DNA of 64,000 nt from contig MFMS01000002.1 of assembly GCA_001783525.1 (NCBI GenBank), positions 121,791 to 185,790 of the forward strand. Direction: 5' to 3'. Numbering within the stretch: the first letter of the stretch is position 1; every line of letters begins with the position of its first letter. The position numbers and the translations under genes are program-made. Source of the DNA: Candidatus Kaiserbacteria bacterium RIFOXYB1_FULL_46_14 (GTDB taxonomy: Bacteria; Patescibacteriota; Minisyncoccia; Phycocordibacterales; UBA918). The notes under the pieces were generated by a model. It had not been told where the DNA came from. It ran no database searches and saw only the letters and a program-made list of their open reading frames with translations. Of this stretch, positions 36,266 to 61,546 are shown piece after piece.

Positions 36266-37573
36266 CTATTGACCGACCGACTCGATAATCGTGATATCGG
36301 CAGAATCATCCGGGAAACTGCGGGCCCAGAATGGTCTAATTGTAGCCGTTGCCTTCTCAATGGCTGGATAGCCGCCAAGAACGGTGTTAATGGCGGTTTT
36401 AGGCGCTCCAGCTAGATCCTTCTTTAGCTGTTCTGCGTCGTAAACCCAGATAAGACGTGGCTTTCCAGTTAGACGGAAGCTGATCGACTCCTTAGAGGCG
36501 AGGTCTGATTCTAACATAGCTTGATCAACATACTCAAAACTAAGTGCGCCAACGTTCTCAATCCGGACAGGCTCGTTTTCATAACCAGGGATTACACTCT
36601 TGGCAATGAAGGCAGCCAACAAGTCATCTTTGAATAGCGGTACCTTGAGCGAGACTTTTTCTTTTATCTTGACCTGACCCTCACCGACAGCTTCGCCTGG
36701 CAAAGTGGTGTAAGTGTAAGTGTAGCTTGACTGCAAGACACTAAAGCCGGCTGGCTTTTCTTTGTCCACTCTTTGTACTAGGGCTTCCTTAAGCTCGCCA
36801 CGCAAGCTTCCGAGTGCAGTTTGCATTTCGTTGTCGTCCACGATGTAACGAGGGCCGTCGAAGCCACCGGCGATCGCAGACGCGTTTTCTGCATAAATAG
36901 CATTATAGAGATCGGTTAGATCATTTTCGCGGAACCCTGGCACGGAGAAGCGGGTACCAGCTGACAGGTTGTACTTAGGACCAGCTTCTTCAGCGAAGAT
37001 CTTGGCTGTCACTGAACCAGGTACTGACTTCCCTTCGCTGTCTGTTGTCGCTCCCGGTACAACTGCAGATTCTGTGATACGGAAGACCGATCCGTCAGAC
37101 GATTCAAAACGAGTGTTTTTGATAAGGCGCTCTTGTCCGGAGGTTGTCTTATAGATGGTGATTTCACCAGTGGCCTGCTCCGTAACCTGTTCTTGGCCAG
37201 TAGCAGTAACTTGGCGTTCGCCCTCAGCTTCGAAGGTGATGATTTCGTAGGCCAATTCACCGCCGGTCGCTTGTCGTTTTGCTTCGAGTGAAGCGTTGAC
37301 GACCGGTTCACGCCAGCGTGGAAATACAGTGACCTTAGCCCCGCCAATAAAAGTGCTGATTACTACACCAATTGCAACTATCGCGAGGAATATGAATACA
37401 GCAACCCAGATGGGCTTCTTTCCTGATCCGCGGCTATTGCTACGCACACGCTCGACTACGGGTTCTTTGGGTAATACGCGTTCTGTCGTCTCATCCATCG
37501 GCATACTAGCGCGAGCCGGACGGCTCTGTCTCTTTGGCGGTTTTATATCTTGCAAATTCCACTTTTTATCCAT
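36266..37573 (-). CDS. Hypothetical bitopic membrane protein (basic cytoplasmic tail, one TM, ~360-aa extracytoplasmic domain)
   Basis: Lys/Arg/Pro-rich first ~55 aa, TM IWVAVFIFLAIVAIGVVISTFIG; no recognised domain. Confidence 0.5.
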   Translation of the reverse strand: MDKKWNLQDIKPPKRQSRPARASMPMDETTERVLPKEPVVERVRSNSRGSGKKPIWVAVFIFLAIVAIGVVISTFIGGAKVTVFPRWREPVVNASLEAKRQATGGELAYEIITFEAEGERQVTATGQEQVTEQATGEITIYKTTSGQERLIKNTRFESSDGSVFRITESAVVPGATTDSEGKSVPGSVTAKIFAEEAGPKYNLSAGTRFSVPGFRENDLTDLYNAIYAENASAIAGGFDGPRYIVDDNEMQTALGSLRGELKEALVQRVDKEKPAGFSVLQSSYTYTYTTLPGEAVGEGQVKIKEKVSLKVPLFKDDLLAAFIAKSVIPGYENEPVRIENVGALSFEYVDQAMLESDLASKESISFRLTGKPRLIWVYDAEQLKKDLAGAPKTAINTVLGGYPAIEKATATIRPFWARSFPDDSADITIIESVGQ

Positions 37574-41080: not shown

Positions 41081-42922
41081 CTACTTAAACTTCTTCAACA
41101 TTTGTTTGAAGGTGGCTATGTCTTTGGCTTGATTATCCAGAGCCTTGAGGAAAGTGTCTTCGCGCTTGGTATCGATGCCGATCGATTTGAATATATCTCC
41201 CACGCTAGCAGAACCACCAGCCGATAGGAATTGATCAATTTGTTCTACATAACTATGATCCGCTTTGTAGTGATTGGCCATTATGGTGCTCATCAAGATG
41301 CCGTAAGCATAGGAGTACACGTAAAAGCCGTAACGGAGATGCGGGATATAGACGTAACTGTAACCATCCTTTGGCTCAACCAGAACGCCTGCGCCAAGAT
41401 AGGCCTTTAGATGCTTTTGCATACACTCTGCCATTTCCTTACTTTCCATGGCTCCTTTTTGTTCGATCGTATTGTGCATCTCAAGCTCACAGTCGAAGAA
41501 TGCCACTTGTCTTTCGATAGTAGCGATGTCACGCGTTATACGATCGTGTAGTAAGGTCAACTTGTCTCGATCCGATACAGTGTTGAAAACGGCATCAAAA
41601 ACCAAGTTTTCGAACAATGTACTGGCGGTCTCGGCAGTAATGATGGAGTGACCTTCATAGAACGAGGTCTGCTTCTTAGAGCGCTCAGCATGAATCGCAT
41701 GACCCATTTCGTGGGCCAGTGTCTCTAGGGATTTGAAATTTGATACATGATTCAGAAAGACATGTGTCGGATGTCCAACATCGCTGGACATAAATGCCCC
41801 ACCTCTCTTGCCTCCCTGTGAAAAGACATCGATCTGTCCGCGCTTCAGCATCGTATCAAAGACGACACCGTACTCTTCCTTTACGCTGTAAAAAACGTCA
41901 CGGCAAATATCCACCGCTTCTTTAAACGAAATGTTTAGCTCACGTCCGATCGTTTCGTACTTTTGAACATAATGAAGCGCCGGTACTTTGTGATAGCTAG
42001 CCTTAAGCTTGTAGAATTCACGAGAAAGCTTGTAGCCACGCGTCCTGACGGCATGAGTCAGATTCTCGATGCTCTTTTCATCATCTTCATAAGCGAGCGC
42101 AGTGGCACTATACGGTTTCTTATAACCACGAAGCTCATCCTCGCCGCGAGCATCAAGAATAATCGCATTCATTTCGTGTTCCGCCATTTCTCCAACCTTT
42201 TCCATCTCGGTCATCAACTTGTCCCACAGCGCAATCTTGTCTTTGGTTTTCAAAAGCTCCAGTGTCTCAAGGGCGACTGGCAAATGAAGAGGTTTCCCTT
42301 TCCATACAATTTGCCGATTACTGATGATCTTTTCTACCGCGTCTGCCCACATTCCACTTGATTGGCGCGACTTGAGACGAATGATTTTTTCCTCCGCTTC
42401 AGAAAGGTGGTACTTGGCACCAAGCCAGAGTTGTTCAAGAAAATAATGAAAATGTGTCAGAGTTTCGTCGGCAAGATAGCGTTTTTGTAAGTCTGGTGGA
42501 GCCTTGCCTAGTTTCAAACTAAAAAAGAGAATCTGATCAGAAGCCTTGCGAAGACGTTTTGAAAGAAGAGAAAGTTGGCGGTTCGCATCGGCGTCGTTCA
42601 CGTTTAGACTTTGACGCAAAGAAAAGTATCGTCCCGGGCGGCCGACCTCTGGTAGCCCTGCTAACTCCTCATACTCAGTAAGAGCCTGCTTCAGCGCGGT
42701 AGCAGAGGCCAGAAAATCACGCGCTGACCACTTTTTGGAAAAGTTTGTATAAGCAAGTTCCGCCGCTTTAATATCAACCTCGATTTGTGGATCTTTGCCA
42801 CTTTTATAATAAAGGCCTTTAAGATCCCAGGTTTCTTTAATAACCGGAGTTTTCGGTAGTGTGCTTTTGGAGTGCCACTTAAAATTATCCTTACTTTTTG
42901 TTTTCTTGGCTTCGCTTAACAT
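41081..42922 (-). CDS. pepF: Oligoendopeptidase F (M3B family zinc metallopeptidase)
   Basis: HEMGHAIH (HExxH) plus the downstream Glu ligand; length and architecture of M3B peptidases. Confidence 0.85.
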   Translation of the reverse strand: MLSEAKKTKSKDNFKWHSKSTLPKTPVIKETWDLKGLYYKSGKDPQIEVDIKAAELAYTNFSKKWSARDFLASATALKQALTEYEELAGLPEVGRPGRYFSLRQSLNVNDADANRQLSLLSKRLRKASDQILFFSLKLGKAPPDLQKRYLADETLTHFHYFLEQLWLGAKYHLSEAEEKIIRLKSRQSSGMWADAVEKIISNRQIVWKGKPLHLPVALETLELLKTKDKIALWDKLMTEMEKVGEMAEHEMNAIILDARGEDELRGYKKPYSATALAYEDDEKSIENLTHAVRTRGYKLSREFYKLKASYHKVPALHYVQKYETIGRELNISFKEAVDICRDVFYSVKEEYGVVFDTMLKRGQIDVFSQGGKRGGAFMSSDVGHPTHVFLNHVSNFKSLETLAHEMGHAIHAERSKKQTSFYEGHSIITAETASTLFENLVFDAVFNTVSDRDKLTLLHDRITRDIATIERQVAFFDCELEMHNTIEQKGAMESKEMAECMQKHLKAYLGAGVLVEPKDGYSYVYIPHLRYGFYVYSYAYGILMSTIMANHYKADHSYVEQIDQFLSAGGSASVGDIFKSIGIDTKREDTFLKALDNQAKDIATFKQMLKKFK

Positions 42923-43487
42923 TACCTAAAAAGTTTTTATACTCCGTATAAACGTGATTGAACTCGCCGATTATAGCATTATCGAGTTGGCGGTTCAGCA
43001 AGTTGGAAAGGTCCTGATAACCTAGTGCTCGTTCTTCCAAAGAGCCGGGAAAATCTACCAAGAATCGGCTGTGGTCATCGTAATATTGTTCAACGATACA
43101 GCGCATATTGTGGATCTTGTCAGCCGCGGCGATCGTGAGCGCTTCTGTCGGCGCTTTTTTCAGTCCTGCTAGATACGCATCTTTCCGCTCTTTCCAAGTA
43201 AGGGCTTTGCCATCTTTCTCTTTTGGTTCGGTCAGCGCTACCACCAGATTGCGAACTTGCTCGCCAAAGTCTTCCTCAAGCTCGGCGGCAGTGTAAGAAG
43301 TATCCTCCAGTACATCGTGCAAAAAGGCAGCTATTACTATGTTTTCATCCTTCGTGTAGTCACGCACCATCCACGCCACAGCAAAAAGATGTGTTATGTA
43401 AGGAAGAGGTGGTACGCCACGCCTCACTTGATCTTTATGGAGCACTGTTGCGGCGCGTATCGCTTGCTCGATTCGGTAGGAGTACAC
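42891..43487 (-). CDS. Stand-alone RelA/SpoT-type HD-domain (p)ppGpp hydrolase (small alarmone hydrolase, Mesh1-like)
   Basis: VLHKDQVRRGVPPLPYITHLFAVAWMV ... IAAFLHDVLEDT ... IAAADKIHNMRCI matches the SpoT hydrolase HD motifs. No synthetase or TGS/ACT domains. Confidence 0.7.
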   Translation of the reverse strand: MYSYRIEQAIRAATVLHKDQVRRGVPPLPYITHLFAVAWMVRDYTKDENIVIAAFLHDVLEDTSYTAAELEEDFGEQVRNLVVALTEPKEKDGKALTWKERKDAYLAGLKKAPTEALTIAAADKIHNMRCIVEQYYDDHSRFLVDFPGSLEERALGYQDLSNLLNRQLDNAIIGEFNHVYTEYKNFLGNVKRSQENKK

Positions 43488-43507: not shown

Positions 43508-43530
43508 GTGGGCGGCCTTCGGCCGCCCAC
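43508..43530 (-). terminator. Intrinsic terminator
   Basis: GTGGGCGGCC-TTCG-GGCCGCCCAC. Confidence 0.7.
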
Positions 43531-43537
43531 GCTAGAG

Positions 43538-43795
43538 TCAATTAGAACCCTTTCTTTCCCTTTGCTCCTCTTCTGTCATTTTTCTTCCCAATTCCAACTC
43601 TTCCCCAGCAAGATCATGTACCTCACCCTGCAGTTTGTGTAATTCGTCTTGGGTTTTCCCTTTTTCAGCCATCAAGTCATCAATTTTATCTTCAACACCA
43701 CGGACCTCTTTTTCGACCTCTTTTATTTCTCCCTCTAATCTAGTTTTGTTACGTTCAATTTGCTCGATCTTTCTTTTCAGATCTTCCTTTGACAT
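43538..43795 (-). CDS. Small coiled-coil protein (85 aa), co-transcribed with the Cas4-like nuclease
   Basis: Heptad-rich, Glu/Lys-rich sequence; 18-nt gap to the upstream gene. Confidence 0.5.
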   Translation of the reverse strand: MSKEDLKRKIEQIERNKTRLEGEIKEVEKEVRGVEDKIDDLMAEKGKTQDELHKLQGEVHDLAGEELELGRKMTEEEQRERKGSN

Positions 43796-43813
43796 ATACT
43801 TGCATTAATTTGT

Positions 43814-44608
43814 TTATTTGATTTTACCCTTCTTCGCCTCTAGGTGTAAAGCCAGCAGTTTTTTGCCAGTAGCCTCACGGTAAGGGCAGTATTCGCAAGA
43901 CTCCCCAGTAGGCGGGATGGCTCGACTATCTAAGAGTTCCTTGATTTTGGCCAAAGTTGGCTCTATCCAATCAACTTTTGTTGGACAATCTACCAAAGTG
44001 GTCTCAAATGTAAGCTTGTCATCAAAGGCATTCTCTTCCTTCGAAGCATTGGCATAGACCAAGTAGCCCATTTCTTCTACTTCGAAACCGTTTTGTTCCA
44101 AGAGCCAACGATATACACCGAGCTGTCTTTGATATTGCTTTTCCCAAGGGCTATCACCGAGTTTTTCAATTCGACCGGTTTTTGAGGTGGCTTTGTAATC
44201 GACTATTATCAATTTCCCCTCCTTTGTCATCCATAGGTCGTCCACTCCTCCAGATACCACTAAGCTAGTTGGTTCATGACGATGTTCGATGCCGACGAAG
44301 GGATCGCGCCACTCGTCCATCTTGGCATGTTTAAAAGGCACAGCATCGACTTTGTAGCGGGTCATAATCGGATGTGCTGTACCAGCCTTGCGATGGATGT
44401 CGAATTCTTTTTTGAAAAGCTCATCGACTGCAATGTTGAGATTGAAAGAAGGCATCGAAGGCCGCTTGGTGCCAAGTTTGTTATCAAGATAAAAACAACG
44501 TGGACACTCAATAAACAAATCAATTTTAGAGCGAGACAAGCGCCATTTGGCACCACCGTAATTCCAGTCTGGAGAGCGGTCAGGATTGTATTTTTTATTA
44601 AATTCCAT
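43814..44608 (-). CDS. PD-(D/E)xK nuclease with Cys cluster (Cas4/RecB-nuclease-like, DUF83-type)
   Basis: GGVDDL (motif II), IVDYK (motif III), QRQLGVYRWLL (QxxxY); Cys at the N-terminus (CPRC) and C-terminus (DCPTK...CEYCPY), consistent with a 4Fe-4S cluster as in Cas4/AddB. Confidence 0.6.
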   Translation of the reverse strand: MEFNKKYNPDRSPDWNYGGAKWRLSRSKIDLFIECPRCFYLDNKLGTKRPSMPSFNLNIAVDELFKKEFDIHRKAGTAHPIMTRYKVDAVPFKHAKMDEWRDPFVGIEHRHEPTSLVVSGGVDDLWMTKEGKLIIVDYKATSKTGRIEKLGDSPWEKQYQRQLGVYRWLLEQNGFEVEEMGYLVYANASKEENAFDDKLTFETTLVDCPTKVDWIEPTLAKIKELLDSRAIPPTGESCEYCPYREATGKKLLALHLEAKKGKIK

Positions 44609-44640
44609 TACTGGATTCTAACAGAGTGCTTTGAATTTAA

Positions 44641-44670
44641 AAAAGGCCGGAGCGAAGCTCCGGCCTTTTT
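44641..44670. terminator. Intrinsic terminator
   Basis: AAAAAGGCCGGAGC-GAAG-CTCCGGCCTTTTTT. Confidence 0.8.
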
Positions 44671-44686
44671 TCCTACAATCAGAACG

Positions 44687-45190
44687 CTACCTAGCTACAA
44701 AACTAGATACTTCGGCATCGACCTGAGCGTCGGTTGCTAGGTCAAAAACCTTATCGCCATTGTCAGAATAAAAGACTATAGCGTAAGTCTTTCCAGACAC
44801 GGTAGGGCGAAGAAGGGTCACTTCAGTTGGTGTTAAGTTCTCTGCCTTGTTGAAGCGAGCGACTCCCAAGAGACCAGTCAACTGGCCACCTTCGTAATCA
44901 CGGATTCCAACCCAACCAGCGTCAGCTGGAAAGGTGACGTTGCTAAGTGATACTTTCTTGTTTGTGGTTGGAACAACTTCAGTTTTATTTTCTGGCTGCT
45001 TTGTCACATCTTCATTTGGTGTATCGCTATTTTCCTCAGCCGTTTCAGGCACAGTGTTGCCATCGACGCGCTTTTCCTCACGGTCTGCTGGATTGGCAAA
45101 AATAAATACAAGTAGACCACCTATTAAAAGGCCAGCGATAAAAGCCACGATAGTCTTCTTGTTTTCCTCAGTCATTGTTTGTTCAGACAT
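44687..45190 (-). CDS. Hypothetical membrane-anchored extracytoplasmic protein (167 aa)
   Basis: N-terminal TM IVAFIAGLLIGGLLVFIF, acidic/Thr-Pro linker, ~90-aa C-terminal domain; TATAAT box upstream. Confidence 0.45.
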   Translation of the reverse strand: MSEQTMTEENKKTIVAFIAGLLIGGLLVFIFANPADREEKRVDGNTVPETAEENSDTPNEDVTKQPENKTEVVPTTNKKVSLSNVTFPADAGWVGIRDYEGGQLTGLLGVARFNKAENLTPTEVTLLRPTVSGKTYAIVFYSDNGDKVFDLATDAQVDAEVSSFVAR

Positions 45191-45238: not shown

Positions 45239-46066
45239 TTAGTCTGCTTTAGACAGTTGACGTGCCTCAGAAATTAATGCTTCTAGTTTACCTTGTGACA
45301 GTCCAAGCTCACTGAGTGTATCGGTCTTATGAAGCACATCCGACGTGACGATTAGGCCAGCGTTCAGAAACTGCATTTTTTGAGCCGCCGAAAGGCTAGT
45401 TAGTACGGTAATCGGGAATAATCCGGTTTTATCAATGAGGGAGTAGAGATTGTCCTCCTTGGGATAGTCCCAGGCCATAAGATCAACCCCCACGCAATTC
45501 GCATACTTGATCGCCGCCGCCGTAAATTTGGTATTGGTGATGATCTTAAGATTCTTTATTCCGCAGACGTCAGCCGAGCAGATCTTTCGATCTGACAAAT
45601 CTAGCAAACGAGCGTAGGAATACATTGCGACCTGCAAATCAGACTTGATTCCTGGGCGAGCGTGAAATTTCGCTTCAGCAATAAAACTATGATCAGCACG
45701 ATAAGCCGCTAAGTCGATTTCATGCAAAGCACACTTGCCTTTTAGAGTAATGCCAACCGATGTTTTGTAACCTTGTGTTTCAAATAACCGGCCGAGAAAT
45801 GTCTCAAAAGGAAAACCGGTTGGCCCCAAGTTGAAGAGTGCGCGACGAAGTGCATAGCGGGCTACCACTTCGGTCTTGGTGCCGCGCAATATTGAAAAGG
45901 CATGCCGGTAAATTTCTTGCGTTCGCATTCCATCGTGTGCGGATTTTTCAACATCACTCACGATCGCTTCGATCGCGTCGTGGGCGGCACCGCTCTTTTT
46001 TAGTGAGCGGCGCAATTTGTTTGAATCAAACTCCTCCACTGTGCCATCAGCTTTTGTAACCAACAT
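45239..46066 (-). CDS. ATP-cone domain fused to Mrr-like (PD-(D/E)xK) restriction-endonuclease-type domain
   Basis: N-terminal LVTKADGTVEEFDSNKLRRSLKKSG...IY ATP-cone signature; C-terminal HEIDLAAY...FIAEAKFH (D...EAK) as in the Mrr catalytic domain. 7-nt gap to the mnmA stop, with no separate SD. Confidence 0.6.
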   Translation of the reverse strand: MLVTKADGTVEEFDSNKLRRSLKKSGAAHDAIEAIVSDVEKSAHDGMRTQEIYRHAFSILRGTKTEVVARYALRRALFNLGPTGFPFETFLGRLFETQGYKTSVGITLKGKCALHEIDLAAYRADHSFIAEAKFHARPGIKSDLQVAMYSYARLLDLSDRKICSADVCGIKNLKIITNTKFTAAAIKYANCVGVDLMAWDYPKEDNLYSLIDKTGLFPITVLTSLSAAQKMQFLNAGLIVTSDVLHKTDTLSELGLSQGKLEALISEARQLSKAD

Positions 46067-47269: not shown

Positions 47270-48253
47270 TTATTTGAGGTACTTTGCAATATTTGCCCTA
47301 TGTTCGTCAAATGTCTTGGCGTAGTGAAAATTTCCCTCCTCGTCGGTTATATAATACAGATATTCAGTATCTTCCGGTTCGAGCACAGCATCAATTGAAT
47401 TAAGGCCTGGATTACCAATCGGTGTCGGTGTTAGTCCGGCATACTTATACGTATTGTACGGAGTGTCTCGTTCTAAATCTTCAGCTCTAAGATCGCTGAG
47501 GGGACGACCTAAAGCATATTCAATTGATGCATCTGTCTGGAGGCGCATCCCTAGCTGTAAGCGTTTTTGTAAGATGCCAGAAACGATTCGCATTGATTCC
47601 TCTGTGTTGGCTTCACGTTCAAGTAGTGAAGCTAGCACTATAACGCCGTCTTCCTTAAGCGGATGTGAGGCCATGGGCTCTTTTCTTGAAGCCACTTTCT
47701 GCTCATAAGTAGTTTTGAGCAATGTTAGCAATTCTGCAGCGGTAAAATCCTCCGGAATGTAGTAAGTGTCAGGAAAAAGATAGCCCTCCATACCTGCCGC
47801 TGAATTCAAAAATTCCGTGCCGTCAAATTGTGACAGGCCTTCTGCGGCCAACAAAGCAAACTCTTTTGTTGTGTAGCCCTCAGGCAAGGTCAGTCGTACC
47901 AGGGTGTCTCCATCGGCGTCTCTGGTGATTCGGTCGATTACAGAGAAGGCAGTTAACGGCGTGTCGAAATAATAGCTACCGGCCTTAACGTTATTTGGAT
48001 CATGCCAAGTTATCAAAATAATGTGTGCTAACAATGAAGACCGTACTGCCTTTGCCTCCTCGAGCTTCTCTACAATAGCCGCCGCTGAAAGTCCACGCGT
48101 AATTGTGATGGTTGTATTAATTGGAAAGTCCGCCGGTGGTCTGGTCTGCCACCAAAATAGCACCAGCAACAAAGAAGCTGTCGCAATAATAAACCCGATG
48201 ACCCACAACCACAAAAAGCGTGACGTCCGACCGACTATATCCATATCTATCAT
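47270..48253 (-). CDS. mltG: Endolytic murein transglycosylase MltG (YceG family)
   Basis: N-terminal TM, YceG-like domain (...YYITDEEGNFHYAKTFDEHRANIAKY). Confidence 0.85.
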   Translation of the reverse strand: MIDMDIVGRTSRFLWLWVIGFIIATASLLLVLFWWQTRPPADFPINTTITITRGLSAAAIVEKLEEAKAVRSSLLAHIILITWHDPNNVKAGSYYFDTPLTAFSVIDRITRDADGDTLVRLTLPEGYTTKEFALLAAEGLSQFDGTEFLNSAAGMEGYLFPDTYYIPEDFTAAELLTLLKTTYEQKVASRKEPMASHPLKEDGVIVLASLLEREANTEESMRIVSGILQKRLQLGMRLQTDASIEYALGRPLSDLRAEDLERDTPYNTYKYAGLTPTPIGNPGLNSIDAVLEPEDTEYLYYITDEEGNFHYAKTFDEHRANIAKYLK

Positions 48254-49644
48254 TGCTTGAATTCGCCAATCGGCAAGTTTGATGGGGCTTCACCACGTTT
48301 CGATGGTACACGATCGATAGTAGGTGTAAGTGCCACTGATCCTGGCAAGTGGAAAATGGTTGCTAACTCCTCTGCAGTAAAGACCTTGTAATCGTCCCCT
48401 CCGCTTTTAGGTGCATATACACGACGTCTGTATTCTTTTAACTCCTGCTTCTTCAGTGCCATAAGCTCCTTTTTCTTTTTACCAGGGAAGAAATCTTTGT
48501 AGTCGAAGTCGGTACGCCAACGAACACCGATGCCGTTTAATCCCCAGTCGAACTGGCTAAACATACGAATTACCGGGTTGATTAAGTCACCGTTAAAGCC
48601 GCCCTTTTGGTTGACGTAAATCCAGCGAATCACAGTATTGTAGGCATACTTGCTGGAGTGGCGTTCTAGTGTCGCGATCGCATCGCGCTCTCCTGCAGTC
48701 AACATCGCCATTTGTCCGCCCTCGTCAGTACCTTTGAAACCAAGCGGAGTTTTTGTCTTTGCATCTCGATTCATCATTTCGTTGATGGCTTTTTTAGATC
48801 CATCATTCCAGTTTGGTCCTTCGCCGATTTGTAGTTGTCCGTTTTGAAAACTAGATCGGCGGAATGAGATTGCTAGTATCTGTACAAACAGCCGCTCGTG
48901 CGGCTTAATACTACCCATTACCTCGAGCATTGGCGTCATTGGGTCAACTTTTTCTTCTTCTTTGGGCATCTTATCGAGACCGTAGTCGATGTAAGATTTG
49001 ATTGGGAAATGTCCATCTCTCTTCTTACCCATATGAACTGCAAAAAGTTCATAACCGAGCTTTTCGTAATTGAGTGGTATTTCGGCGGCGTAGTCGATTG
49101 GTTCTTCGATTATCTCAACGTTTGGATACTGTGCATACATATTGGCCTCAAAGGCGTCCTTGGTCTTTTTAGTCGGAACGTTCACATAGAAACGCACTTC
49201 GCCACCGATTGACGCCAACTCAAAAGAAAACGGCAGCGGTCGTTTGCCTTGGATGTAGGTTTGCATAAAATTGTCTGGATTGGCAGTGTTGTGGATTTGA
49301 GAAATGACAAACTCCATAGCTTCAGGAGATTTCATTACTTCTTGAGGTAGGCGAATACGTAGCGTAGTGCGGCCTTGTCCAAGGCTAAAAATCGGCCCAA
49401 TGGTATCCATCCACTTATAGAAAAAAAGTAGAAAGAGAACCACCGGAAGCCACAATGGAATAAGGGCAATAAAAACAGTCAGTACGTTGCCGGTTGATAT
49501 ACCAAAAACAACGAAGCCGACTATTATGAGAAGAAAAGCGATACCAGCGATCAGCGGACCATAATCAAGATCCTGATCGTTTATCCACTTAAAGGTAGCC
49601 CCAGCGAGGGGAACATGTTCTTCGTAGAATTCCTTGCCAAACAC
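48250..49644 (-). CDS. Hypothetical membrane protein (2 TM + ~370-aa domain), ATGA-overlapped with mltG
   Basis: Two N-terminal TM helices; no recognised domain; 4-nt overlap implies translational coupling with mltG. Confidence 0.5.
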   Translation of the reverse strand: MFGKEFYEEHVPLAGATFKWINDQDLDYGPLIAGIAFLLIIVGFVVFGISTGNVLTVFIALIPLWLPVVLFLLFFYKWMDTIGPIFSLGQGRTTLRIRLPQEVMKSPEAMEFVISQIHNTANPDNFMQTYIQGKRPLPFSFELASIGGEVRFYVNVPTKKTKDAFEANMYAQYPNVEIIEEPIDYAAEIPLNYEKLGYELFAVHMGKKRDGHFPIKSYIDYGLDKMPKEEEKVDPMTPMLEVMGSIKPHERLFVQILAISFRRSSFQNGQLQIGEGPNWNDGSKKAINEMMNRDAKTKTPLGFKGTDEGGQMAMLTAGERDAIATLERHSSKYAYNTVIRWIYVNQKGGFNGDLINPVIRMFSQFDWGLNGIGVRWRTDFDYKDFFPGKKKKELMALKKQELKEYRRRVYAPKSGGDDYKVFTAEELATIFHLPGSVALTPTIDRVPSKRGEAPSNLPIGEFKQ

Positions 49645-49749: not shown

Positions 49750-50778
49750 TTAGTCGGTTACAAGAGCGTATGCTCCATTACCAAGACGTTTGAACATATT
49801 GGTGTCCTGAAGGTTTACCACGATAGTGTTGTCCTTCACGTAGCGCTCCTTGCGAACCTTGTCGATGATTTCATCGCGAGTAAGAGGACCATGCTTCTCC
49901 AAAATATCTCGCAAGACGTCCTTCACCACTCCGGCTGAGTAACCCCACTCGGAGAGAGCATAAAGACCACGGCCAACCAATACAAACCGGCGGTCTTTGA
50001 TCAGCTCATTGTGTGTAGTAGCAACGTGAGCTTTGCGTTCAAAAAGCTGTTCAATCATATTGGCCACCTCGCGGAAGTGCATCGGAGAACCGTGACGTTT
50101 CACTACCAAGTAAGCATAATCACGAATACCCTTCACTTTTACGTTCGGACTAGTGGTGTGTCCCCATTCACCAAGCGGGTTGCGAGAAATATCCTTAGAC
50201 ACCATCAACCAACGCTTCAAAACATCCTCATTGTATTTGTCAGCAAGACCAATCAACTGCTCCTTGAAGCGAGCCAGTATTTCTTCTTCAGACACGAGTT
50301 GATCGCGTTCTAGAGATTGATGCACGTTGCGGAGAGCCTTTTCTACGGTATCTGCCTTTTCACGTTCAGTGAACCAACGGTGCATGTAAGAGGTGTTTTC
50401 TTTGGCACGGTAAAACGGATCACCAACTACAAGTAGGAAATAGATGTGATTACGAGTTGCTTGATCAGATGAAAGTGCCTCAAGCAAATGGTCTTCGGCA
50501 ATGAAACCACCACCCAACTCCTCAATCAGACGATGTAGTTCATCAAAGACACTTTTGTATTCGTCGTAGATCGGAGACTTCTGGATAGATGCGATGCCGT
50601 AGGCCTCGATCTGACGCACACGTTCACGGGTGATTCCATAGGCCTGACCAATCGACTCAAGGGTGAAAGATTCGGTTTCGGTGCCGAGACCATAGCGCTT
50701 AGTGAGGACGTCACGGGCGCGCTCTGGCAAGGCAGACAAGAGCTTTTTGGTTATCTGCTTTGGTTTAAAGGTAATCAT
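49750..50778 (-). CDS. Protein with N-terminal sigma-70 region-4-like HTH and a ~270-aa uncharacterised C-terminal domain
   Basis: LSALPERARDVLTKRYGL...TLESIGQAYGITRERVRQIEAYGIASI matches the region 4.2 signature; no regions 2 or 3. TTGACG-17-TAATAT promoter upstream. Confidence 0.5.
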   Translation of the reverse strand: MITFKPKQITKKLLSALPERARDVLTKRYGLGTETESFTLESIGQAYGITRERVRQIEAYGIASIQKSPIYDEYKSVFDELHRLIEELGGGFIAEDHLLEALSSDQATRNHIYFLLVVGDPFYRAKENTSYMHRWFTEREKADTVEKALRNVHQSLERDQLVSEEEILARFKEQLIGLADKYNEDVLKRWLMVSKDISRNPLGEWGHTTSPNVKVKGIRDYAYLVVKRHGSPMHFREVANMIEQLFERKAHVATTHNELIKDRRFVLVGRGLYALSEWGYSAGVVKDVLRDILEKHGPLTRDEIIDKVRKERYVKDNTIVVNLQDTNMFKRLGNGAYALVTD

Positions 50779-58450: not shown

Positions 58451-61400
58451 ATGTTTCCTCTTTGGAACTTCTTCCTCACTCGCCAAGCATTTACGATCCT
58501 TACCATCTTCACCTTGCTGGCCGCGGGCACTTACGCCATTTTTTCTATTCCTAAGGAATCCACGCCAGAAATTGTGATTCCAATGGGAATCATTACCACC
58601 GTCTTGCCTGGCGCTACTGCCGCAGATGTGGAAAGACTTGTAACCGACAAACTCGAGCCAGCAGTGCGCAACGTCGCCAACATCGACGATGTTACCTCCA
58701 CCTCACAACAAGGTGTTTCTGTTATCACCGCGCAGTTCCTATCTTCGACTGACGTTGACGTGGCCCTCAACGACCTCCGTACCGCCATCGATGGTGTGAA
58801 GGCTGAACTACCAACCGATGCCGAAGAACCGACGGTGGCAAAAGTTGATTTTCAGAACCAACCAGTCTTGATGGTTGGTGTTTCAACTGACCTTTCTCCG
58901 ACCACTCTCGCCAAACTTGGCGAGGATCTCCAAGATGATCTGACTAACGTAACCGGAGTATCGCGAGTTGAGGTTTCTGGCGTGCGTGATCGACAACTAA
59001 CTATCGTTGTTCATAAGGATGCACTAGCGCGACATAACTTGCGTGCCGATCAAGTGATTGCTGCACTCCGTATGGCTAACGCGTCCATACCGGCTGGCGC
59101 ACTGACGATCGATGGTGTTGACTACCCCGTTCAGTTTGAAGGAGATATAACCGAGGCCGGTGCTATTGCAAACACTCCGATTACTACACCGTCAGGTACC
59201 GTTAGAGTGTCTGATGTCGCCACTGTTATTGATGGTTTTGAAAAATCATCCACTATTTCTCGTTTGTCACAAGGTGGGGAAGATGCGACCTACGCACTAA
59301 CTCTTAATATCTACAAGACATCCGGAGGAAATATTTTAACCGCTACCGACAACACCCTAGAGCGAATCGAGGAGCTCAAAGATAGCCTACTCAAAGGCTC
59401 TGATGTGGTTGTTATATATGACGCTGGCGAAGAAGTTCGTGACTCAATCAACGAACTGACTCGCACTGGCTTTGAAACAGTTATGCTTATTATGCTCGTT
59501 CTCTTGATCGCGATCGGTCTTCGTGAAGCACTCATTGCTGCACTTTCTGTACCACTATCTTTCGTGATCGCCTTTATGGGCATGATGGCAACCGGAAACT
59601 CGATCAACTTCATTTCCCTCTTTGCGTTGATTATCGCAATTGGTATTTTGGTGGACTCCGCCATTGTAGTAGTCGAAGCGATCCACACAAACCGAGAACG
59701 TGGCCTTGCTAAGCTCGAAGCTGCCCGCAAAGCCATTAAAGACTTTGGCTGGCCGTTGATTGCTGGCACCATGACCACGGTTGCGGTGTTCGTGCCGCTC
59801 TTCTTCCTAACCGGCATCATTGGTCAGTTTATTAAGTCCATTCCATTCACTATCATTGTCGTGCTAATGGCGTCGATTGTGGTAGCTCTTGGTTTTGTTC
59901 CTCTCATTACTCTCTGGGTTATCAAGCACGAAGAAAGTCCGTTTGTTATTTATCGAGAAAAACTTTGGACAAAAATCTCTACCAACTACCGAGCGTGGAT
60001 GGATAAGTTATTCTCAAGTATCCGCCTACAACGTTTGTTCTTTGGATTCTTGGCCGTTACTTTTGTTATAGCTTTGGCGCTACCGATCTCTGGTCTTCTG
60101 AAGACCGTAATGTTTCCTCCAGATAACGCTGACCTCGCTTACCTTGAGATAGAAATGCCACAAGCTACAACACTTACCGCTACCGACGCCGTGGCCAAAC
60201 TAGTTGAAAAGGAAGTGGCCAAAACTCCACACCTTAATTCGTATATGACGACAGTAGGTAGTGGTTCTCTATTCAACTCCAGTGGCGCTAGTGCTGGTAG
60301 TAAGTTTGCCAACATTACCTTAAACCTCGACCCTGACCGCCCAAAAAGCGCAAACAGTGAAGTGATTGTGAGTGATCTTCGAGTTCGTCTCGCCGGTCTT
60401 ACTCTAAACAACGCAAAGGTGACAGTATCGTCAGCAGAGGGTGGGCCACCTTCTGGCGCTCCGATTGTCGCCAAAGTATGGGGTGAGGATGCTGCGGCCC
60501 TTTCACGTGCTACCGAGCAACTAGAAAACCTCGTCAAGAATACCGCCGGCACTCGCGATATTTCTTCCTCACTTTCAAATGACGGAACGGAGTTACGTAT
60601 CGCTGTCGATCGGAGCAAAGCAGAAGAATATGGTTTATCAGCCGCTGACGTGGCCTCCACTTTGCGCACAGCGATTGACGGAGTTGATGCCACTACTATC
60701 CGCATCGAAGGTGAGGATGTGGACGTGCACGTTGTAATGGACTTAAACGCTGACTTCGTAAACCCAGAAGACACCTCCATCGCTACCGCAGACGCAATCG
60801 CAACTGTGCCAGTCGCTACACCACGCGGAACTATCCCGCTTGGTTCCCTGCTTACTATCACCGCAGGGCGTACTTCGGCATCTATCAATCACGAAGACGG
60901 TACCCGAGTGAGCCAAGTTAGTGCTTATGTGGTAGATGGTGCTAACGCGGTTGAATTAACCGATGCGATCCGTGTTGAAGCCGAAAAGTTGGAGCTGCCG
61001 TCTGGTATTCATCTTAGTTTTGGTGGTGAAGATGAGGAAATCCGCCAGACCTTCACTGAGATGTTATTGGCTTTGATTGCTGGCCTCGTCTTGATGTTCG
61101 CAGTGTTGGTACTTGAATTTAACTCTTTCCGTACCTCACTCCGCCTACTCTCCGCGATTCCACTTTCGTTGACCGGCGTTCTAATAGGTCTATTCATCGC
61201 AGGACAACCGTTATCATTCACTGCCTTTCTGGGAATCATCGCGCTTGGTGGCGTTGTGATTAACCACGGTATTCTACTCCTCGACGTACTAAACCACTTA
61301 CGCGGGTCGAATGTCGATGGCAACCCGAAGGATATCGTACTTACTGCCGCCGAGAGTCGCCTTCGCCCGATCCTTCTTACCACCATCACAACTGTGATCG

Positions 61401-61546
61401 GTATGGTGCCACTTACTCTTGTGTCTGCGATGTGGGCGCCACTGGCTTTCACAATTGCCTTTGGTCTCATTTACGGCACAATCTTGACGCTGGTATTCAT
61501 TCCACTTCTTTCTTACCGTAGATTGGTAAAGGAGATGGCAAGATAA
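58451..61546 (+). CDS. RND-family efflux permease (AcrB/AcrD/AcrF-like, 1031 aa)
   Basis: 12-TM topology with two large loops; ACR_tran signature segments. Confidence 0.9.
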   Translation: MFPLWNFFLTRQAFTILTIFTLLAAGTYAIFSIPKESTPEIVIPMGIITTVLPGATAADVERLVTDKLEPAVRNVANIDDVTSTSQQGVSVITAQFLSSTDVDVALNDLRTAIDGVKAELPTDAEEPTVAKVDFQNQPVLMVGVSTDLSPTTLAKLGEDLQDDLTNVTGVSRVEVSGVRDRQLTIVVHKDALARHNLRADQVIAALRMANASIPAGALTIDGVDYPVQFEGDITEAGAIANTPITTPSGTVRVSDVATVIDGFEKSSTISRLSQGGEDATYALTLNIYKTSGGNILTATDNTLERIEELKDSLLKGSDVVVIYDAGEEVRDSINELTRTGFETVMLIMLVLLIAIGLREALIAALSVPLSFVIAFMGMMATGNSINFISLFALIIAIGILVDSAIVVVEAIHTNRERGLAKLEAARKAIKDFGWPLIAGTMTTVAVFVPLFFLTGIIGQFIKSIPFTIIVVLMASIVVALGFVPLITLWVIKHEESPFVIYREKLWTKISTNYRAWMDKLFSSIRLQRLFFGFLAVTFVIALALPISGLLKTVMFPPDNADLAYLEIEMPQATTLTATDAVAKLVEKEVAKTPHLNSYMTTVGSGSLFNSSGASAGSKFANITLNLDPDRPKSANSEVIVSDLRVRLAGLTLNNAKVTVSSAEGGPPSGAPIVAKVWGEDAAALSRATEQLENLVKNTAGTRDISSSLSNDGTELRIAVDRSKAEEYGLSAADVASTLRTAIDGVDATTIRIEGEDVDVHVVMDLNADFVNPEDTSIATADAIATVPVATPRGTIPLGSLLTITAGRTSASINHEDGTRVSQVSAYVVDGANAVELTDAIRVEAEKLELPSGIHLSFGGEDEEIRQTFTEMLLALIAGLVLMFAVLVLEFNSFRTSLRLLSAIPLSLTGVLIGLFIAGQPLSFTAFLGIIALGGVVINHGILLLDVLNHLRGSNVDGNPKDIVLTAAESRLRPILLTTITTVIGMVPLTLVSAMWAPLAFTIAFGLIYGTILTLVFIPLLSYRRLVKEMAR

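Follow-up and report, generated by a model that had tools for sequence, protein, structure and literature searches.

A solo Cas4/RecB-type nuclease of Patescibacteria with a candidate role in DNA repair and a fast-evolving coiled-coil neighbour

The window, i.e. the whole 64 kb stretch of DNA that was analysed, with its 67 ORFs, encodes a 264-aa nuclease (NUC) followed by an 85-aa ORF (CC). NUC is best explained, at a probability of roughly 0.6, as a vertically inherited core solo Cas4/RecB-type metal-dependent DNA nuclease that would serve in repair, and CC as its neighbour. Much of bacterial diversity belongs to CPR/Patescibacteria, and DNA upkeep in their minimal genomes is poorly known; AlaRS-level conservation and recurrent alkyltransferase and uracil-glycosylase neighbours make NUC a good candidate for the role of a core repair enzyme in Patescibacteria, and solo-Cas4 proteins are thereby given a testable role. 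For the window itself the result was mostly corrective, NUC appearing as neither a defence gene nor a phage remnant and CC as a neighbour acquired through secondary gene loss. The features of the locus are as follows.

43508–43530, minus strand: putative terminator hairpin, 7 nt past the CC stop codon (RNAfold).
43538–43795, minus strand: CC, 85-aa Glu/Lys-rich, fast-evolving ORF with a predicted single-helix coiled coil (ORF, predicted helix).
43814–44608, minus strand: NUC, 264-aa solo Cas4-like/PDDEXK_1 nuclease (ORF and profile matches).
43886–43897, minus strand: CEYC (C238, C241), C-terminal half of the putative metal staple; conservation among homologues is 94% for C238 and 96% for C241.
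44111–44251, minus strand: nuclease core with motif II (G120, D123, D124), motif III (D137-x-K139) and QhxxY (Q162...Y166), assigned by residue conservation.
44495–44506, minus strand: CPRC (C35, C38), N-terminal half of the putative four-Cys metal staple; 98% of homologues retain C35 and 96% retain C38.
44615–44623, minus strand: inferred extended −10 element TGTTAGAAT, read from the sequence, with its end 6 nt upstream of the NUC ATG.
44639–44671, bidirectional: predicted terminator hairpin of the upstream DUF7282 gene, A6-GGCCGGAGC-GAA-GCTCCGGCC-T6 (RNAfold).

The 264-aa protein was searched against Pfam, where it matched PDDEXK_1 (PF12705) above the gathering threshold, at 56.2 bits versus a cutoff of 22 (E = 6.3e-15), and Cas_Cas4 (PF01930) at 30.3 bits versus 22.7 (E = 5e-7); both matches place it in the nuclease family that had been proposed for it. 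The curated Cas4 profiles were split, with PF01930 passed and the TIGR00372 cas4 equivalog failed (41.3 bits, below the cutoff of 65). NUC is also not a member of DUF3799 (PF12684), reaching only 13.9 bits versus a gathering threshold of 26, and is thereby set apart from the DUF3799 putative exonuclease EUBREC_2131 (PDB 3L0A). The RecB-type motifs II and III and the QxxxY that had been read from the translation were confirmed as GGVDDL (residues 120–125), IVDYK (135–139) and QLGVY (162–166), all conserved in homologues: G120, D123, K139 and Y166 are invariant among 84 diverse homologues, with a retention of at least 95% for D137 and Q162 and of at least 90% for D124. At the sequence level, the family assignment is far above chance, the RecB active site (D123, D137-x-K139, Q162-x3-Y166) is intact, and the identification of NUC as a RecB/Cas4-type PD-(D/E)XK nuclease whose catalytic motifs are preserved is supported. 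The best match of the NUC profile in the PDB was Cas4 SSO0001, and a Cas4/RecE/Dna2-like exonuclease fold of the RecB/Cas4/lambda-exonuclease type is confidently predicted for NUC (AlphaFold model, pLDDT 95).

NUC consists of a single domain, and no SF1 helicase partner was found among the genes annotated ~7 kb to either side (about 36–55 kb of the window), nor was a helicase present among the commonest families of the two genes downstream of NUC in 74 related loci. NUC thus differs from AddB/AdnA/RecB, Dna2, EXO5 and MGME1 in being without a helicase domain or helicase neighbour. Dna2 and EXO5 carry an iron staple of 1+3 Cys, whereas MGME1, RecB and AdnA are not known to have one.

Five Cys are present in NUC (35, 38, 208, 238, 241), and their Cas4/AddB-like arrangement, as claimed by the original prediction, stood in part. 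C35 was aligned to the N-terminal cluster Cys of the Pcal_0546 Cas4 (PMC4176176) and C238/C241 to the C-x2-C of Cas4 4r5q and 4ic1; as judged by alignment, the four conserved Cys sit where the Cas4/AddB 'iron staple' sits. C208, however, is retained in just 8% of homologues, and the pattern is a different one: the canonical Cas4/AddB arrangement comprises one N-terminal Cys and a C-terminal C-x2-C-x5-C (PMC4176176, PMC3466216), corresponding to the 1+3 iron staple of AddB (PMC3466216), whereas in NUC the third C-terminal Cys is absent and the conserved set C35-x2-C38 ... C238-x2-C241 is 2+2. The '4Fe-4S' designation is not established for NUC because Zn occupies the staple site in the related nuclease structure 3L0A (PMC3466216); the four Cys would form a structural metal centre, either Fe-S or Zn.

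From the CRISPR-associated Cas4 proteins (DUF83), namely SSO0001 (4IC1), Pcal_0546 (4R5Q) and those of types I-C and I-G, NUC is distinguished by an identity of only 15–28%, by a length greater by about 50–60 residues, by the lack of the x5-C third Cys with the second N-terminal Cys, C38, conserved instead, by its score under the TIGR00372 cutoff and by a locus without cas1/cas2 or array. The earlier statement that the 64 kb hold no CRISPR array or other cas genes was borne out, as searches for tandem or short-spaced direct repeats found none and PADLOC on the 67 window ORFs gave no Cas-model match besides NUC; likewise, no cas gene was found among the genes annotated within 6 kb on either side at the 74 loci, where Pfam was applied to the two downstream genes only. 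In Hudaiberdiev 2017 (PMC5704561), CPR genomes with solo-Cas4 are reported to be mostly without CRISPR-Cas. These points, with the non-canonical Cys pattern, make it extremely improbable that NUC is a Cas4 of CRISPR adaptation, separated from an array and cas1/cas2 at another genomic site or left behind by their recent loss, even with PF01930 above its gathering cutoff and the JGI label 'CRISPR/Cas system-associated exonuclease Cas4' on NUC homologues.

The same paper describes solo-Cas4 as over-represented in CPR and DPANN and as vertically evolving, suggests a role in repair or defence, and names Parcubacteria and Nomurabacteria, in both of which NUC homologues were found. The likeness to the CPR/DPANN solo-Cas4 portrayed there covers the stand-alone gene, the small CRISPR-less genome, vertical evolution and purifying selection; NUC lies outside cas loci in conserved chromosomal synteny, with dN of no more than 0.18 and dS saturated. 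At the family level, NUC is by its sequence an ordinary member of the known solo-Cas4/PF12705 group. The 2+2 Cys, the MGMT/UDG neighbourhood and the leaderless promoter are features without a description in the sections of PMC5704561 that were consulted.

Conservation was assessed over 74 related genome loci with ±6 kb flanks, all labelled as Patescibacteria-type MAGs except three with generic or other labels. The synteny block g48250-YceG (MltG)-MnmA-ATP-cone protein-DUF7282-NUC-...-HD-PepF-AlaRS is kept in most of the 74 genomes, the GC content is uniform with no compositional anomaly at the NUC locus, and the NUC tree groups by gene context. In this sample, which was retrieved by NUC-derived peptide patterns and is biased to genomes with well-conserved NUC, NUC surpassed the other syntenic proteins in conservation in 29 of 41 loci, its median identity lying 1.9 points above that of AlaRS and 15 above that of MnmA; its dN was 0.05–0.18 at saturated dS. 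NUC is about as conserved as AlaRS and, on comparative evidence, is vertically inherited and belongs to the core genome of Patescibacteria (Paceibacteria/Kaiserbacteria). An RNA-processing PD-(D/E)XK nuclease tied to the surrounding translation genes is a very unlikely identity for NUC. The ATP-cone/AF1548-like neighbour was considered as a specific partner of NUC and rejected, its gene being hardly better retained than the rest of the block (44 of 74 loci versus 41 for MnmA).

The ORF coordinates agreed with the described 264-aa ORF and the 85-aa coiled-coil ORF 18 nt downstream of it: both are on the minus strand, in one shared reading frame, no hairpin lies in the 18-nt gap, and co-transcription of NUC and CC in the window is predicted. 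A TAnnnT hexamer, often after TGn, begins 11–16 nt upstream of the NUC ATG in 51 of 72 related loci, compared with a background of 21–28% of all genes; we infer that NUC possesses a conserved extended −10 element of its own immediately ahead of the ATG, and its mRNA is predicted to be leaderless. Two strong hairpins were indeed found to bracket the pair, a simple terminator scan listing neither of them. The hairpin at 44639–44671 has a 9-bp GC stem lengthened by A/U pairs and a T6 tail on the NUC strand; the 79-nt segment containing it has an MFE of −29.9 kcal/mol (z = −4.7, RNAfold), and the six closest relatives (L001–L006) carry a GC hairpin with a T-run of different sequence at the same position. 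The hairpin at 43508–43530 has a 10-bp GC stem (−22.8 kcal/mol, z = −4.9, RNAfold) and an interrupted T-tract (AACTTTAAATTTTC); among the same six relatives a comparable one is found only in L002, it is absent from L003–L006, and the spacer of L001 is N-masked.

Two ORFs separated by 18 nt that contain no hairpin, with one hairpin beyond each end of the pair, could be taken for a compact, self-contained and possibly phage-derived defence or mobile module, a reading to which the weak PADLOC Cas4 and PHROGs phage-exonuclease matches of NUC and the TIR domain borne by one distant NUC homologue would also lend themselves. It is highly improbable given the housekeeping synteny shared by most of the 74 genomes, the AlaRS-like conservation of NUC, the presence of the downstream hairpin in just one of the six closest relatives and the restriction of direct NUC-CC adjacency to 7 genomes, all inside the NUC-MGMT-CC-HD clade. 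A phage or mobile origin was rejected after searches of several kinds: a peptide-pattern scan of IMG/VR detected no close viral relative of NUC, tblastn against the 50,697 phage genomes of INPHARED gave one match to NUC at 26% identity, a BFVD fold search returned TM-scores of ≤0.51 at identities of ≤19%, the PHROGs matches were weak, and GC profile and repeat searches accompanied the finding of no integrase, repeats or GC shift at the locus. A defence system was rejected as well; PADLOC on the pair, its neighbours and the 67 window ORFs gave only weak Cas4 matches (≤45 bits) besides DruK at E = 0.004, with no partner genes and no other defence system in the 64 kb, and the PADLOC matches of CC were of a composition type, to SMC-like proteins. 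The suggested phage-derived or defence nature of the pair is contradicted by these results.

CC consists to 56% of E/K/R/D/Q and is predicted as one unbroken helix (residues 3–83, pLDDT 96), the 3.5-residue hydrophobic periodicity of which was matched by 0 of 2000 shuffles. Positional orthologues of 78–85 aa occur in L001–L006, and heptad periodicity is seen in 7 of 7 CC orthologues despite identities of 14–35%. With dN of 0.64–1.26 versus 0.05–0.18, CC evolves roughly 4–25 times faster than NUC, typically about 5–13 times; no CC homologues were detected in a database of 5.8 billion proteins, and tblastn found CC only in L001 and L004, at 33–36% identity. On these grounds, CC is a real, rapidly evolving coiled-coil protein and a neighbour rather than a demonstrated partner of NUC.

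The 'compact two-gene module' did not survive comparison with related genomes, since direct pairing is confined to the window's clade, i.e. the window and 6 close relatives (7 genomes), the downstream hairpin is rare, and CC is fast-evolving and has no database homologue. This clade is nested within lineages having NUC-MGMT-CC-HD, and in the sister lineages CC is positioned between MGMT and the HD hydrolase gene; the juxtaposition therefore stems from a loss of MGMT in the window's clade, by which CC was brought beside NUC. A genuine physical pair, in which CC oligomerises, tethers or regulates NUC in a housekeeping pathway, would agree with the predicted co-transcription and with the occurrence of charged coiled-coil ORFs downstream of NUC in three arrangements, namely NUC-CC-HD (7 genomes), NUC-MGMT-CC-HD (about 15) and NUC-large CC-SerRS (5). 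It would also suit the retained heptads and the hhalign comparison between CC groups, which gave a probability of 84% versus 4–23% for reversed-sequence controls, over 30 columns and subject to coiled-coil composition bias, so that homology of the groups is not established. Such a pair is nevertheless rather unlikely: several close lineages (L019–L021, L023–L025) retain NUC-MGMT-HD but lack CC, which evolves at the much higher rate given above and lies equally near to NUC and the HD gene, and no NUC-CC fusion was found among 150 representatives.

A gene for a mini-MGMT, an O6-alkylguanine-DNA alkyltransferase, and/or one for a uracil-DNA glycosylase of family 1 or family 4 is located just downstream of NUC in 41 of the 74 loci. 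The PCHRV motif of the MGMT C-domain was found on the same strand within ~620 nt downstream in 33 of 74 loci, and about 17 of the 74 have a same-strand UNG1 or UDG4 motif downstream; Pfam on the two genes called downstream of NUC gave PF01035 in 23 and PF03167 in 11. The MGMT/UDG contexts occur on various deep branches in the NUC tree, and UNG1 and UDG4 swap in place; in the window and its six closest relatives, an MGMT or UDG gene nearby is absent. Because NUC elsewhere heads a tightly packed string with mini-MGMT and/or UDG, its neighbourhood in related genomes points to DNA repair. Of the 'defence/repair unit' suggested by the original prediction, the repair role is thus plausible, whereas defence is contradicted. 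The gene neighbourhoods in question belong to streamlined genomes, in which the unrelated HD hydrolase, PepF and AlaRS genes are equally packed.

By analogy, NUC would be an Mg2+/Mn2+-dependent exonuclease or flap nuclease, and its cellular job may be DNA repair through the trimming of 5′ ends or flaps. Cas4 proteins act on ssDNA as 5′→3′ exonucleases and carry a structural cluster (PMC3466216, PMC4176176), and the polarity of NUC is most likely 5′→3′ on single-stranded ends, as extrapolated from structural relatives of 10–28% identity. A more elaborate version, which is put forward tentatively, joins these elements: NUC would be the strand-processing enzyme of a lineage-specific NUC/mini-MGMT/UDG base-damage repair operon, removing 5′-dRP groups or flaps following uracil excision. 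In such an operon the single-domain alkyltransferase might recruit NUC as a lesion sensor, NUC might substitute for RecJ or Pol I 5′-nuclease functions in minimal genomes, its unusual 2+2 Cys would hold an Fe-S or Zn staple, and CC would be an accessory scaffold.

CPR bacteria rely on nucleotide salvage, and NUC could be pictured as a degradative nuclease that supplies nucleotides from imported or damaged DNA in a host without de novo synthesis. The adjoining HD_4 phosphohydrolase, which is fused to the NUC homologue P0137, a NUDIX domain fused to the homologue P0129, and the nuclease-like protein with a nucleotide-sensing ATP-cone that 44 of 74 loci encode upstream fit this picture. It is unlikely, however, as the recurrent and interchangeable MGMT, UNG and UDG4 neighbours are repair enzymes, the very strong constraint on NUC would be unusual in a bulk degradative nuclease, the P0137 fusion may reflect gene-calling read-through across adjacent genes, and the ATP-cone gene is hardly more frequent than MnmA (44 versus 41 loci).

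The preferred reading of NUC as a solo repair nuclease has a counterpart in the solo-Cas4 of Methanosarcina mazei (PMC12501428), which is likewise an orphan with four Cys, has a cluster dispensable for catalysis and has been proposed to act in genome integrity; the RecB motif is lacking in that protein, whereas in NUC it is intact and invariant.

The 264-aa Cas4-like PD-(D/E)XK nuclease (NUC) and the 85-aa Glu/Lys-rich coiled-coil ORF on its 3' side (CC) were located on the minus strand in the same frame, 18 nt apart as in the original prediction, with the following features:

43814..44608, minus strand, NUC, 264-aa ORF
43538..43795, minus strand, CC, 85-aa ORF
44639-44671, upstream hairpin between the DUF7282-like gene and NUC (RNAfold, 79-nt segment −29.9 kcal/mol, z = −4.7; A6 and T6 flanks)
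43508-43530, downstream hairpin, 7 nt past the CC stop codon (RNAfold, −22.8 kcal/mol, z = −4.9; T-tract interrupted)
44623-44615, minus strand, extended −10 element TGTTAGAAT immediately 5' of NUC, ending 6 nt short of the ATG

The predicted motifs GGVDDL (residues 120-125), IVDYK (135-139) and QxxxY (QLGVY, 162-166) and all five cysteines (35, 38, 208, 238 and 241) were found in NUC, and the strong hairpins expected on both sides of the pair were recovered. Both hairpins (z ~ −4.8) were missed by a simple consensus terminator scan, whose negatives are unreliable. As also predicted, no CRISPR array or other cas gene was detected: tandem or closely spaced direct repeats were not found in the 64-kb window, and NUC was the sole match to Cas models among its 67 ORFs. 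A CRISPR Cas4 acting in trans is regarded as extremely improbable.

The family assignment was borne out by Pfam, where PDDEXK_1 (E = 6e-15) and Cas_Cas4 (E = 5e-7) both matched; NCBIfam cas4 (TIGR00372) scored 41 bits, under its cutoff of 65. Using a profile of 84 diverse NUC homologues, the best PDB sequence match was the Cas4 protein SSO0001 at only E = 0.003, and the AlphaFold model built with the 84-homologue alignment was very confident (pLDDT 95.2, pTM 0.91), which together place the modelled protein in a subfamily of its own within the RecB/Cas4-type exonuclease fold. Residues S25, C35, K66, R73, G120, D123, K139 and Y166 were invariant among homologues, and C38, D62, D70, W100, D124, D137, Q162, C238 and C241 were kept in at least 90%. 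C208 was retained in only 8%, and the conserved set is therefore C-x2-C ... C-x2-C. Cas4, AddB and Csa1 carry one N-terminal and three C-terminal cysteines (PMC4176176, PMC3466216), whereas NUC is 2 + 2; of the five cysteines in the original prediction, four are conserved, in a pattern other than that of Cas4/AddB. Since C35 aligned pairwise with the N-terminal ligand of Pcal_0546 and SSO0001, and C238/C241 with the first two C-terminal ligands, C38 most likely takes the place of the missing fourth ligand.

Distant homologues (35-45% identity; P0147, P0152, P0174, P0257, P0259, P0260; P0183; P0129; P0137; P0209) bore extra modules, namely signal-peptide-like N-termini that lead into low-complexity Ser/Lys-rich linkers, TIR + GYF, NUDIX, HD_4 or DUF2779. 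Given this diversity, the nuclease core seems to have been taken up into very different settings, with secretion or defence as possible ones.

Homologues of NUC formed at least 7905 clusters at 90% identity, the best 120 of which were 70-86% identical to it; few of the clusters listed carry names, and those named were Kaiserbacteria, Paceibacterota or 'Pacebacteria' MAGs. Among 74 genome loci retrieved with a homologue (best, a Kaiserbacteria MAG at 91% identity), about half shared the gene order g48250 - YceG/MltG - MnmA - ATP-cone/AF1548-like - DUF7282 - NUC - [slot] - HD (SpoT-like hydrolase) - PepF - AlaRS. NUC ranked first in conservation among syntenic proteins at 29 of 41 loci, a result subject to the caveat that the 74 loci were collected by NUC peptide patterns, and was conserved on a par with AlaRS (median difference +1.9 identity points for NUC). 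Against the window's six closest relatives, its dN was 0.05-0.18 with dS saturated. The wider window holds housekeeping genes, including LeuRS, YchF and a sigma-factor-like protein, at flat GC throughout. The suggested phage origin did not hold up against this setting: no close relative was found in IMG/VR, in 50,697 phage genomes (a single match at 26% identity) or in BFVD (TM at most 0.51), and a defence or phage module is very improbable. The gene is core and vertically inherited. It fits the 'solo-Cas4' class, described by Hudaiberdiev et al. (PMC5704561) as over-represented in CPR bacteria with function unknown. NUC is thus read, at a probability of about 0.85, as a housekeeping DNA nuclease of the solo Cas4-like kind, as opposed to a mobile or defence module.

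Occupancy of the slot 3' of NUC varied. In the window and in L001-L006, the six relatives closest to it, a 78-85-aa coiled-coil ORF came immediately after NUC. Most other Paceibacteria had in this place an 82-105-aa match to the C-terminal domain of O6-alkylguanine-DNA alkyltransferase (mini-MGMT), often overlapping or abutting the NUC stop codon; it lay directly 3' of NUC in L008-L047, L054, L063 and L074, not in the window. This gene comprises the DNA-binding and active-site domain only, with PCHRV intact, and is followed interchangeably by a family-1 (UNG1) or family-4 (UDG4) uracil-DNA glycosylase. A same-strand PCHRV motif was present within ~620 nt downstream of NUC in 33 of 74 loci and a same-strand family-1 (GQDPYH) or family-4 glycosylase in ~17, one or both motifs occurring in 41/74; among the two genes called downstream, Pfam found PF01035 in 23 and PF03167 in 11. 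On a neighbour-joining tree of NUC, MGMT/UDG contexts fell on deep, separate branches, and UNG1 and UDG4 swapped at the same position. The string looks like a small Patescibacteria-specific set of base-damage repair genes.

NUC combines an intact RecB active site and Cas4-like fold with a conserved four-cysteine site and core chromosomal status. By analogy with Cas4, AddB, EXO5 and Dna2, it would be an exonuclease or flap nuclease that depends on Mg2+/Mn2+ and attacks single-stranded 5' DNA ends, with the four cysteines as a putative structural Fe-S or Zn staple; a nuclease acting on RNA is quite improbable. Its cellular role may be repair, such as 5'-dRP or flap removal after base excision, or end resection. 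This role, proposed mainly because of the MGMT/UDG neighbours, is held with moderate confidence; it is a neighbourhood argument in very compact genomes, and neither an MGMT nor a UDG motif was found in the 64 kb of the window. A nucleotide-salvage nuclease, to which the neighbours and fusions of HD, NUDIX and ATP-cone type would point, is considered unlikely.

CC was predicted as a single 81-residue helix (pLDDT 96), and 3.5-residue periodicity was strong in all seven orthologues (observed value reached by 0-1.3% of shuffles). It is very probably a real gene, because length, position and the N-terminal 'MS..s(L/I)' start were kept at only 14-35% identity. Its dN was 0.64-1.26, ~4-25 times the NUC rate in pairwise comparison; no homologue was detectable in a 5.8-billion-protein database, and Pfam, NCBIfam, PHROG and PADLOC returned generic coiled-coil noise and no specific family. 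In ~15 loci, NUC-MGMT was followed by an 87-138-aa charged coiled-coil ORF and then the HD gene. Alignment of coiled-coil groups with hhalign (84% probability over 30 columns vs 4-23% for reversed controls) suggested homology of CC to these post-MGMT ORFs of sister lineages and to 180-286-aa coiled-coil proteins in L046/48/49/50/73. Since the NUC tree nests the window clade in the NUC-MGMT-CC-HD group, direct NUC-CC adjacency is most simply explained by MGMT loss. The predicted pairing was conserved in L001-L006; in sister lineages MGMT intervened, and in some close lineages (L019-L021 and L023-L025; NUC-MGMT-HD) the coiled-coil ORF was missing. With CC also fast-evolving, a specific partnership is not supported; a genuine NUC-CC complex, compatible with the housekeeping reading, is doubtful.

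The upstream hairpin was conserved in L001-L006 in position, not in sequence; the downstream one recurred in L002 only, being absent from L003-L006, with the L001 spacer N-masked. A TAnnnT hexamer, in many cases with TGn before it, started 11-16 nt 5' of the NUC ATG in 51 of 72 loci, the extended element (TGnTAnnnT) ending 6-9 nt 5' of the start codon in 51/72. Because this element adjoins the ATG and no Shine-Dalgarno sequence was evident before NUC, translation is probably from its own leaderless mRNA. Of all genes called in that DNA, 21-28% had this TAnnnT geometry, and leaderless transcripts may thus be widespread in Paceibacteria. A consensus match, TTTACA-18-TAAAAT, at 43850-43821 coincides with coding sequence in the NUC 3' end and could serve CC as a candidate promoter.

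Solo-Cas4 and its CPR enrichment are already in the literature, and close homologues are labelled 'PD-(D/E)XK nuclease family protein' in public MAGs. The 2 + 2 cysteine pattern, recurrent NUC-MGMT-UDG string, AlaRS-level conservation and conserved leaderless promoter, of which the available portions of that literature gave no description, are refinements and not a new kind of system.

Upstream, the 275-aa protein at 45239-46066 (−) joins an N-terminal ATP-cone (nucleotide-sensing) domain to an AF1548-like restriction-endonuclease fold and a helix-hairpin-helix (PDB 1Y88, E = 1.8e-29); in 44/74 loci its gene shared the strand of NUC and preceded it by one or two genes. The protein, if a nuclease-like (d)ATP sensor, would be interesting on its own. 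Between the two, in 33/74 loci, stood a fast-evolving (26-66% identity) DUF7282-like gene, here 44687-45190 (−), 167 aa, with an N-terminal transmembrane segment, acidic low-complexity linker and DUF7282-like C-terminal domain. Downstream, 42891-43487 (−) encodes a 198-aa protein with a SpoT/RelA-type HD_4 hydrolase domain, resembling small alarmone hydrolases, whose GTG start lies only 20 nt past the 43508-43530 hairpin, with a −10-like TAAATT 9 nt before it; this gene shares 32 nt with the PepF-like M3 peptidase gene downstream. Two large ORFs without Pfam match encode conserved proteins, at 48250-49644 (−; 464 aa, 91% identical in L001, syntenic in 38/74 loci) and 36266-37573 (−; 435 aa). 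An unusual pairing of N-terminal Sigma-70 region 4 with a HARE-HTH domain was found at 49750-50778 (−; 342 aa), and a full-length transporter of the AcrB/RND type (ACR_tran in Pfam, 632 bits) at 58451-61546 (+), in a seemingly patescibacterial genome.
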